This document shows, one piece after another, positions 6,671 through 46,185 of a stretch of DNA of 64,000 nucleotides. The notes beneath the pieces were generated by a model. That model saw only the letters and a list, made by a program, of their open reading frames with translations, had not been told where the DNA came from and did not search any database. The translations under genes and the position numbers were made by a program. Every line of letters starts with the position of its first letter. Positions within the stretch are counted from its first letter, which is position 1. The DNA is taken from positions 30,782-94,781 of the forward strand of contig CAMEAQ010000007.1 in NCBI GenBank assembly GCA_945911275.1. Direction: 5' to 3'. The stretch is from an uncultured bacterium. GTDB lineage: Bacteria > Bacillota > Clostridia > Lachnospirales > Lachnospiraceae.

Positions 6671-7354
6671 ATGAAATATACAATTACACGGATTTTAAGT
6701 ATTATGGTAATTACTCTGATACTTGTGGGATGCGGAACCAGAACAGACACGGATTCTCCGAATGGGGTATCGGAAGTTCGTCCCCAGGAAACCGTGATTC
6801 CGGAAGAGAATACAGGAACAGCGGATACAGAGAAAACCGTTGATACCGGAGATACAGCGAATACGGCAGATAAAGCAGAGATGGCTGAGACGAAAAATTC
6901 AGAAGCGCAGCAGGGAACCGTGATATCGGAAGAAGAGGCGAAGGCAATCGCGCTGAAAGATGCCGGATTAACAGAAGAAGAAGTGAGCAGTATTCGTGTG
7001 AAGATGGAAACCGATGACGGAGTACAGGAATACGAAGTGGATTTTTATGCAGGGGATAAGGAATACGATTATGATATCGACGCACAGACAGGCGAAATCC
7101 GCAGTAAGGATATGGATATTGACGATGACTTCAATAAAACAAAATCCGTAAAAACAGCAGTTACCGAGGAGGAAGTGAAAAAGATCATACTGGAAAAAGT
7201 ACCGCAGGCAGCAGAAAAAGATATCAGGATGCATTTGGATTATGATGACGGAAGAACGATTTATGAAGGTTCTGTAGTCAGCAACGGAGTGGAATATGAT
7301 TTTGAGATTGATGCTGACAGCGGCAGGATCCTGGAATGGGAAGAAGAACATTGA
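6671..7354 (+). CDS. PepSY domain lipoprotein (2 PepSY repeats)
   Basis: LILVGC lipobox; two ISEEEAK...YEVDF...YDIDAQTGEI-type repeats. Confidence 0.9.
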   Translation: MKYTITRILSIMVITLILVGCGTRTDTDSPNGVSEVRPQETVIPEENTGTADTEKTVDTGDTANTADKAEMAETKNSEAQQGTVISEEEAKAIALKDAGLTEEEVSSIRVKMETDDGVQEYEVDFYAGDKEYDYDIDAQTGEIRSKDMDIDDDFNKTKSVKTAVTEEEVKKIILEKVPQAAEKDIRMHLDYDDGRTIYEGSVVSNGVEYDFEIDADSGRILEWEEEH

Positions 7355-7356
7355 TT

Positions 7357-7384
7357 AAGAGAGCCATTTGAGCTCTCTTTTTTT
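7357..7384 (+). terminator. intrinsic terminator of RR-HK-PepSY unit
   Basis: AAGAGAGC/GCTCTCTT stem followed by a T run. Confidence 0.8.
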
Positions 7385-7556
7385 ATATCATAGGAAAGTG
7401 CTTCGCATTTTCCTATGATATAAAAACCCTCCGGGGGGATGCACACGATGCGCATAGGAAAGCTGCTAAAGCAGCTACGCATCGGCGCTCAAAGTGTGCA
7501 AGCCCCCCATGAGTGAGGGGTATGGGGAGTTGAAGTGGGTTTGCCCACTTTGTTCT
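7380..7556 (+). repeat. 177-bp structured interspersed repeat (MITE/REP-like), copy 1
   Basis: 176/177 identical to the reverse complement of 45776-45952; several internal hairpins. Confidence 0.92.
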
Positions 7557-21536: not shown

Positions 21537-21663
21537 AGGTTTTCCTATAATCGGAAATTGTTTTCAGGTAATAGGAACGCATACATACAGCGGCAGATTG
21601 GGGACACCACCTTTTGTCGTTTTTTATCAAGTACACCTTGATGTACTTGATGCGAGATGTGCG

Positions 21664-21724
21664 GTGCAAAGCCCCTCATGAGTGAGCGATATGGGGAGTT
21701 GAAGTGGGCTTACCCACTTTGTTC
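21664..21724 (+). repeat. diverged 3' fragment of the 177-bp repeat, copy 3
   Basis: GCCCCTCATGAGTGAG..ATATGGGGAGTTGAAGTGGG....CCCACTTTGTTC matches the repeat 3' end; flanked by the inverted repeat GAGATGTG/CACATCTC. Confidence 0.85.
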
Positions 21725-45775: not shown

Positions 45776-45952
45776 AGAACAAAGTGGGCAAACCCACTTC
45801 AACTCCCCATACCCCTCACTCATGAGGGGCTTGCACACTTTGAGCGCCGATGCGTAGCTGCTTTAGCAGCTTTCCTATGCGCATCGTGTGCATCCCCCCG
45901 GAGGGTTTTTATATCATAGGAAAATGCGAAGCACTTTCCTATGATATAAAAA
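45776..45952 (-). repeat. 177-bp structured repeat, copy 2 (inside thrS leader)
   Basis: Reverse complement differs from 7380-7556 at one base. Confidence 0.92.
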
Positions 45953-46185
45953 CAGAAAAGCCCGTCTCTTTCGACTTTTCTGTCGAAAGGGACGAGCATA
46001 TAACTCGCGGTTCCACCCTCTTTGGTGCAGATATGCACCCGCTTCATTTGATGATAACGGAATCACCGTGCCGTATTAGGGCCGCTCAGAGGTGGTCTTC
46101 AGACAATAATCCGGCGGGATGCTTACACCTCTCCATCCCTCTCTGGAGCCATCTTACTGCTTACTCTTCTCTTCAACGCTTTCTA
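45953..46185 (-). ncRNA. T-box leader (Thr, ACC specifier)
   Basis: AGAGA/GGTG stem I motifs, GAAG-ACC specifier (46094-96), AGGGTGGAACCGCG T-box (46006-19), terminator stem 45960-97. Confidence 0.93.

Follow-up and report, generated by a model that had tools for sequence, protein, structure and literature searches.

The 173-nt repeat described here is very probably a non-autonomous miniature derivative of an IS91-family transposon. A Y2 HUH transposase from the same clade likely mobilises it in trans by a rolling-circle mechanism. The repeat represents a known type of selfish DNA whose choice of target is unusual: it inserts directly after intrinsic terminators. Two copies lie in the window, the whole 64-kb stretch of DNA that was analysed, which belongs to a 3.98-Mb draft genome (G000).

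Copy 1 occupies positions 7384-7556 (+) and begins inside the terminator T-run of a PepSY gene. The ORF located 5' of this copy (6671-7354) encodes a PepSY domain (Pfam, 5e-24), and the terminator scan predicted an intrinsic terminator at 7357-7383 (+), with a stem-loop at 7357-7379 and a T-run at 7378-7384. Copy 2, at 45776-45948 (-), is situated between the terminator of the thrS T-box and the thrS ribosome-binding site. Its target at 45949-46185 (-) consists of the T-box leader, the terminator and the T-run GGGCTTTTCTGTTTT; Rfam recognizes the T-box with 115 bits at 45985-46185 (-), upstream of the ThrRS gene. The two copies share 98.9% identity across 181 nt according to BLAST, with one mismatch in the flanking T-run and one within the 173 nt of the element (CCCCCC vs CCCCTC). 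The inserted unit, whose boundaries were derived from comparison with empty sites, is TATATCATAGG...CACTTTGTTCT in both copies and carries no ORF. A first-pass annotation, based on the letters of the window, had already located the two copies beside the PepSY terminator and the thrS T-box, and its claim of a single difference between them agrees with the one mismatch in the element proper. The near-identical pair was thus correctly recognized. The proposed length of 177 nt was not: the empty sites assign the four leading T to the T-run of the terminator itself, leaving a unit of 173 nt.

The element can be divided into five parts, given here for copy 1 on the (+) strand. The left (origin-side) hairpin TATATCATAGGAAAGTGC-TTC-GCATTTTCCTATGATATA at 7384-7422 is seen in the predicted fold, and its stem carries compensatory changes among copies. 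It is followed by the linker AAAACCCTCCGGGGGGAT at 7423-7440. At least six short family members stop right past CCTCCGG(G), and the linker therefore acts as an alternative right end. The central imperfect palindrome, GCACAC GATGCG..AGCTGC TAAA GCAGCT..CGCATC..GTGTGC at 7441-7499, is missing from the short forms and is a perfect palindrome in one copy of the related genome G010. A small hairpin, CCCC(C/T)CA-TGAG-TGAGGGG at 7503-7520, holds the only difference between copies 1 and 2. The right (termination-side) end at 7524-7556 is composed of the box GGGGAGTTGAAGTG, a stem-loop (AAGTGGG-TTTG-CCCACTT, 7533-7550 (+)) and the T-rich tip TGTTCT; autonomous IS copies have the same box and tip, with the stem-loop in the same position. 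Folding reproduced the stems that had been predicted earlier, namely a 5' hairpin (22 bp when pairs between the T-run and an A-run are included), the long imperfect central palindrome, CCCCTCA/TGAGGGG and AAGTGGG/CCCACTT. The two ends of the element are unrelated and are not inverted repeats of each other, as had been stated.

A diverged right-end fragment (CCCCTCATGAGTGAGCGATATGGGGAGTTGAAGTGGGCTTACCCACTTTGTTC) is located at 21664-21724 (+) in the thiC/TPP leader and shows 90% identity to the element. It begins 127 nt past the T-run of the TPP terminator, in line with the earlier report of a diverged 3' piece about 130 nt downstream. The fragment is kept in G010 and deleted in a second relative, G015. 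The stretch between the TPP terminator and this fragment (21538-21663) contains degenerate pieces resembling the left hairpin (TTTTCCTATAAT, AATAGGAACG). It also holds a second small hairpin with a T-run (GACACCACCTTTTGTCGTTTTTT) and a new hairpin, ATCAAGTACACCTTGATGTACTTGAT. These degenerate element-like pieces suggest that the fragment probably remains from one or several older insertions, and the whole stretch probably represents insertions that were stacked earlier in the thiC leader and have since decayed.

The mobility of the element is demonstrated by filled and empty sites in related genomes. In the thrS leader, G010 and G015 lack the element while their flanks are 98-99% identical to those of G000. 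The empty site reads GGGCTTTTCTGTTTT followed by AATATC.., and the filled site reads GTTTT, then TATATCATAGG...CACTTTGTTCT, then AATAAT... In G007, a more distant species, this T-box terminator is occupied by another variant of the element, so the target was hit independently there. An orthologous full copy is found at the PepSY site of G015, and G010 retains a doubly deleted remnant there. Searching the joined flanks of all loci, followed by alignment, revealed four further insertions in G000 that are found in neither close relative; these are short forms of 48-74 nt. In all five filled/empty comparisons the left junction lies at the T-run, and the right ends vary. No consistent target duplication was observed, only an ambiguity of 0-3 nt (TA/TAT), and the filled sites sometimes have longer T-runs. 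The insertion of the element is recent, and the description of a recently active, non-autonomous element without target duplication is borne out by these comparisons.

BLAST and profile searches place the family at about 36-40 sites in G000, five of which are full-length copies. The family is modular. Its left module consists of the T-run, the AT-rich hairpin (TATCATAGGAAAG..CTTTCCTATGATA) and AAAACCCTCCGGGG, and in several copies ..GCACAC is fused straight to TTTGTTC. Several others stop right past CCTCCGG(G), and a few are right-end fragments only. The hairpin stems vary between copies through compensatory changes. Alignments with two close relatives indicate that much of this modularity is due to in-situ deletions between short direct repeats; the short direct repeat ATAGGAAAG occurs twice per element. 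Outside G000, some but not all species of the genus carry the family, as does one further genus. A second tiny derivative, nearer to the IS discussed below, follows a tRNA terminator at C5:157458-157523.

The link between the element and terminators is strong and specific. An intact left end is retained by 28 copies in G000, and in 26 of them the 40 nt upstream fold with -8 kcal/mol or lower. Under a strict criterion, which demands a 40-nt upstream fold of -8 kcal/mol or better and a stem end no more than 3 nt from the T-run, a terminator-like hairpin precedes 22 of these 28 left ends, compared with 14.7% of a background of 3,000 intergenic runs of at least five T in G000 (binomial p = 8e-14). 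Several targets are leader attenuators, including riboswitch attenuators, the thrS T-box and sites with T-box signatures at C2:196535 and C19:30000. Therefore, the target appears to be the terminator as such and not merely the 3' end of a gene.

The orientation of the copies leads to the same conclusion. The GC skew of G000 is very strong (about +/-0.2 in 40-kb windows), and the leading strand holds 80-95% of the coding bases; thrS is one of the minority of lagging-strand genes. While 31 of 35 copies agree with the skew and gene-strand bias, the other four, including the thrS copy, oppose the replichore bias, and all four follow the local gene. Orientation thus tracks the terminator rather than the direction of replication. 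The genome-wide picture is the one anticipated in the first-pass annotation, which had proposed that copies are co-oriented with transcription and sit downstream of terminators: the copies are neither randomly oriented nor independent of terminators.

These regularities could also be read as those of a functional RNA. The element might be a selected cis-regulatory module of untranslated regions, serving as a stabilizer, a second terminator or an sRNA, with its mobility being incidental. Upon read-through, the element is always sense to the neighboring gene, its stable stems show compensatory changes, and an insertion in the leader of thrS, an essential gene, is tolerated. We nevertheless regard this explanation as improbable. 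The presence of the element varies among genomes with 98-99% identical flanks, and disruptive internal deletions are frequent. Rfam, searched with gathering and with permissive thresholds, returned nothing for the element, as only the T-box and TPP families pass within the window; the best matches on the element itself were spurious microRNA models far under threshold. Moreover, the conserved parts are exactly the transposon ends, and the stems are equally explicable as DNA hairpins read by an HUH enzyme.

The lead to the parent of the element came from a weak match on contig C78, where the 47 nt preceding an IS1182 insertion resemble the right end of the element. These 47 nt lie just upstream of a 391-aa ORF on the opposite strand (C78:583-1758). 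The ORF product matches Y2_Tnp in Pfam (3.7e-43), has a Zn_Tnp_IS91 zinc-binding domain, exceeds the NCBIfam IS91 equivalog cut-off of 125 with 322 bits, and contains the motifs HIH and YIGRY. As judged from its sequence, the ORF is an intact gene for an IS91-family Y2 HUH transposase. The IS1182-family element (C78:1850-3463, inverted repeats CAGACTGTAGACAAAGC) has split the right tip of the resident IS precisely at the CACTTT/GTTC boundary. It parts the IS from its own termination tip, and the transposase ORF remains intact.

Comparison of the ends ties the element to this IS. The resident IS terminates in ..CCCCTCATGAATGAGGGGCTAGGGGAGTTGAAGTGCCGAAGGCACTTTGTTC(T), and the final 55 nt of the element can be aligned with it. 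Both have the same box GGGGAGTTGAAGTG and the same tip CACTTTGTTC, and the stem GTGGG/CCCAC is changed in a compensatory manner. The element hairpin at 7503-7520 is homologous to CCCCTCA(A/T)GA(A/T)TGAGGGG near the right end of the IS clade. On the left side, the hairpin core ATAGGAAAGT..ACTTTCCTAT is common to the left ends of two IS copies from other loci (L137 and L212), and the longer form ATAGGAAAGT(C/G)C..G(A/C)CTTTCCTAT matches their palindromic left end. The stretch GATATAAAAACC is also shared with the IS, and the left-end match is weaker than the right. The left tips differ, being TATATCATAGGAAAG in the element and CTTTATAGGAAATTCC in the resident IS, and only the core ATAGGAAA and GATATAAAAACC are in common. 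No IS copy with the exact left tip of the element, TATATCATAGG, was found among about 100 loci. The element has a fixed orientation, with the T-rich target abutting its left end, and a tip of TTTGTTC(T); the targets of autonomous copies are mainly TTTA or TTTG, and GTTC is found in only 4 of 67. The pairing of transposase and element is one we infer, and the chemistry considered below is borrowed from studies of IS91 and IS801.

The first-pass annotation had stated that the element could not be assigned to a named family and had named a match to an IS end as evidence against its reading. Such a match now exists: the box GGGGAGTTGAAGTG, the stem-loop and the tip CACTTTGTTCT are those of an IS91 clade. 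It overturns the statement on assignment and leaves the claims on the behavior of the element unaffected. The suggestion of searching for full-length elements bounded by the same ends proved fruitful, as matching ends flank an IS with a Y2 transposase, and not TnpB, a Y1 transposase or a reverse transcriptase.

Several other candidates for the parent were considered and rejected. The element is not a classical MITE, i.e., a derivative of a DDE transposon, as it lacks terminal inverted repeats and a target duplication of fixed length, and the term "MITE" is only loosely apt. Other IS91-type genes of G000, on contigs C81, C83 and C85, are only 25% identical and have different ends with 20-bp inverted repeats. 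The ORFs upstream of the 3'-only fragments are housekeeping genes (SHMT, a MerR-type regulator and RluD) and not transposases. As a separate observation, the IS91-family elements on C81 and C85, which belong to a different clade, have a tyrosine-recombinase gene, terminal inverted repeats TTGAACCAAGTCGCACATGC and a right end consisting of a hairpin and TTTGGTTCAA. The contigs break at the ends of these elements, which suggests that several copies are present.

It is very improbable that the element belongs instead to the palindrome-associated elements of the IS200/IS605 type, which a Y1 HUH transposase moves as single-stranded DNA and whose right end might contain a TnpB guide RNA. Elements of this type would account for the absence of inverted repeats and target duplication, the subterminal hairpins and the strand-specific insertion beside a short motif, and Pfam scans did reveal Y1 and TnpB loci in G000. 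However, the flanks of these loci (on C69, C22, C21, C17 and C20) share nothing with the element. Its left and right hairpins are mutually unrelated, unlike the ends of IS200/IS605 elements, and its right end is homologous to the ends of the IS91 clade. The earlier suggestion of an HUH/Y1 driver is thus half right: an HUH enzyme is likely, but of the Y2/IS91 class, as the ends of the Y1 loci are unrelated. Nothing supports the RNA-guided or RNA-mediated route that had been offered beside it, and the ends of the Y1/TnpB loci are unrelated to those of the element. One locus on C22 (15315-16091) encodes a 258-aa protein with a weak Y1-transposase domain and TAGGACAGGGG hairpins on both sides; it resembles a REP-associated (RAYT-like) locus and is unrelated to the element.

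Homologues of the resident transposase are widespread. Of 151 genomes sampled from the same taxonomic family, 16 have such a gene, and a species-representative collection contains 358 places with one, mostly in Lachnospiraceae and other Clostridia. Enterocloster aldenensis has 11 IS copies with 97-99% amino-acid identity to the G000 protein. The relatives G005, G010, G011 and G015 carry the element, and no close transposase homologue was detected in their incomplete assemblies.

The targeting of the element is shared by the autonomous copies. In the complete genome G128 (four copies) and in E. aldenensis (11 copies), every copy immediately follows a GC hairpin and T-run that differ from copy to copy, with the transposase gene in antisense orientation, as seen from alignment of the copies in both genomes. 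One of these targets is a T-box terminator (GGTGGTACCGCG...GCCCTTTACAGTTGTAAAGGGCTTTTTT, directly followed by the IS). The left end of the autonomous IS is CTTTATAGGAAA..., and the right end is ...AAACCCCTAA.CCCCTCA.GA.TGAGGGG..AGGGGAGTTGAAGTG-loop-CACTT, followed by TTGTTC(T) or TTTTTAT. Among copies with unique flanks from many genomes, 46 of 67 satisfy the strict terminator criterion, and most of the remaining flanks are terminators that were missed by the T-run parsing. The final four bases before the IS in these 67 copies are TTTA in 32, TTTG in 10, GTTC in 4 and TTCA in 4. The right-end stems covary (GTGCC/GGCAC, GTGTC/GACAC, TAGGC/GCCTA, GTGGG/CCCAC). Since the autonomous copies end in their own hairpin and T-rich tail (GGGGAGTTGAAGTG-loop-CACTTTGTTCT), their end resembles the target. 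At three junctions, the IS is located directly after the right end of another copy (..CACTTTGTTC joined to CTTTATAGG), so that the element's own end serves as a target.

Class C group II introns insert after terminators. Also very improbable is a retro-like origin, in which an A-tailed antisense RNA would be copied into DNA with the terminator T-run as primer, or the element derives from a class C group II intron: incomplete copying would yield truncated forms, and the fixed T-run junction, the variable far end, the sometimes longer T-runs of filled sites and the absence of duplication would all fit, but no reverse transcriptase or intron RNA domain is linked to the ends, Rfam gives no match, and a variable far end is equally expected from premature termination of the IS91 type. 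A DNA transposon that encodes a Y2 transposase and shows the same targeting is delimited by these ends, and the model of target-primed reverse transcription was dropped on this ground.

Descent from the IS91 clade suggests how the element may transpose. Transposition of IS91 begins at one end, which is essential, and halts at the opposite end or at sequences resembling it, and no target duplication is generated (PMC5714925, PMC3189936). The IS91/IS801 transposase acts in trans (PMC5714925, PMC3189936), and IS801 gives rise to fragments, 229-679 nt long, that are mobile and always retain the origin end (PMC3189936). By analogy, the element would keep only the two different ends of its parent, with the AT-rich hairpin and its core ATAGGAAAGT as the origin side and the GGGGAGTTGAAGTG box, the stem-loop and the T-rich tip TTTGTTCT as the termination side. 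The enzyme would nick one strand where the T-run of the target meets the left end, and the nicked strand would then be displaced. A second cut would be made past the right-end hairpin and its T-rich tip, and the strand would be joined 3' of a similar structure, namely the GC hairpin and T-run of an intrinsic terminator. The terminator may thus act as a structural mimic of the termination end. Such a likeness between own end and target would explain the fixed orientation relative to transcription, the lack of duplication and the insertions into riboswitch and T-box leaders. Tandem ter-ori junctions observed in other genomes are compatible with circular rolling-circle intermediates.

The short members, whose left end is constant and whose right end varies, could be products of premature termination or of later deletion. 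Their right ends lie at CCTCCGG(G) or at other positions and do not coincide with a GTTC-like tetranucleotide, so that premature termination is just one of the possible origins. Numerous deletions in situ have been documented.

A more speculative proposal, which we consider rather doubtful, is that target capture is coupled to transcription termination. The Y2 transposase would mistake the terminator for its own termination end on the non-template single strand exposed at a paused or terminating RNA polymerase. Coupling of this kind would account for copies being oriented with the local gene on the lagging strand as well, as in thrS, and for the repeated hits on T-box and riboswitch attenuators, at which the polymerase often pauses. 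If it is true, the clade would be a natural reporter of termination sites and a simple system for studying target choice in HUH rolling-circle transposition.

The features of the element can be compared with those of known systems. In common with IS91, IS801 and IS1294, it has a Y2 HUH partner, dissimilar ends without inverted repeats and no target duplication. Insertion has a fixed orientation beside a short target abutting the origin end, though this target departs from the classical tetranucleotide, and the far end is variable, as in one-ended transposition. The termination end is a GC stem-loop with a tetranucleotide (GTTC) that resembles the classical target. Conversely, the target of the IS91 family is a bare GAAC/CAAG (GTTC/CTTG on the other strand), whereas here it is a hairpin with a T-run, with insertion mostly after ..TTTA or ..TTTG. 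Unlike members of that family, the element is gene-less, reaches about 40 copies per genome and has a long AT-rich left hairpin.

The closest parallel among short forms is provided by the IS801 miniature fragments of Pseudomonas syringae (PMC3189936), which are likewise short and gene-less, of variable length, with a fixed origin end, and are moved in trans. However, these are simple truncations of 229-679 nt that were obtained in trapping experiments and have a low natural copy number (PMC3189936). The present element, in contrast, is an evolved two-ended unit of 173 nt with an added internal palindrome and terminator targeting. Non-autonomous Helitrons (PMC4778049) also transpose by an HUH rolling-circle mechanism, lack inverted repeats and target duplications, have a 3' subterminal hairpin near the tip, and include gene-less copies that outnumber the autonomous ones. 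They differ in their Rep-helicase transposase, their insertion between A and T and their eukaryotic hosts, and there is no sequence relation.

Strand-specific sites just past terminator-like hairpins are also used by class C group II introns, IS200/IS605 and REP-type elements. The machinery of the introns (a ribozyme and a reverse transcriptase) and of the Y1 elements is different, and their defining sequences are absent from the element. Terminator-like sequences have been reported upstream of several IS families (PMC13548323), and our literature searches found no description of terminator targeting by IS91 elements. What apparently goes beyond previous descriptions is the targeting of terminators by a whole IS91 clade, the likeness between own end and target, and the approximately 40 gene-less copies, including those in T-box and riboswitch leaders.

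The IS91 family is among the least understood groups of bacterial transposons, and natural high-copy gene-less derivatives of it are barely documented. The clade is common in gut Lachnospiraceae and other Clostridia, and both its autonomous and its miniature members insert precisely after intrinsic terminators. This provides a testable rule for target recognition by a Y2 HUH transposase, in which a structure is combined with a T-run. Intergenic repeats of this "structured" class, which might be misread as new RNA genes, thereby also find an explanation. In addition, insertions of the element add to the variation in leaders of essential genes, of which thrS is an example.

Another structured and conserved unit, about 90 nt long, was noticed at C4:88188-88290 and C32:21214-21310. 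It follows a hairpin-only form of the element and lies upstream of ddl-like and uvrC-like genes. Its sequence is CAG(A/G)ATCGCACTGC(A/G)GCGGAGAG..ATTATGT..AAAGCAACCCGC(C/T)GCAGGCGGAGAATCCTGCAAAGCAGGATTCTTTTTT, and Rfam gives only a weak match to the ylbH leader (E = 0.07). The terminator of this unit is the target of an IS copy in another genome, as seen in the flank of locus L142.
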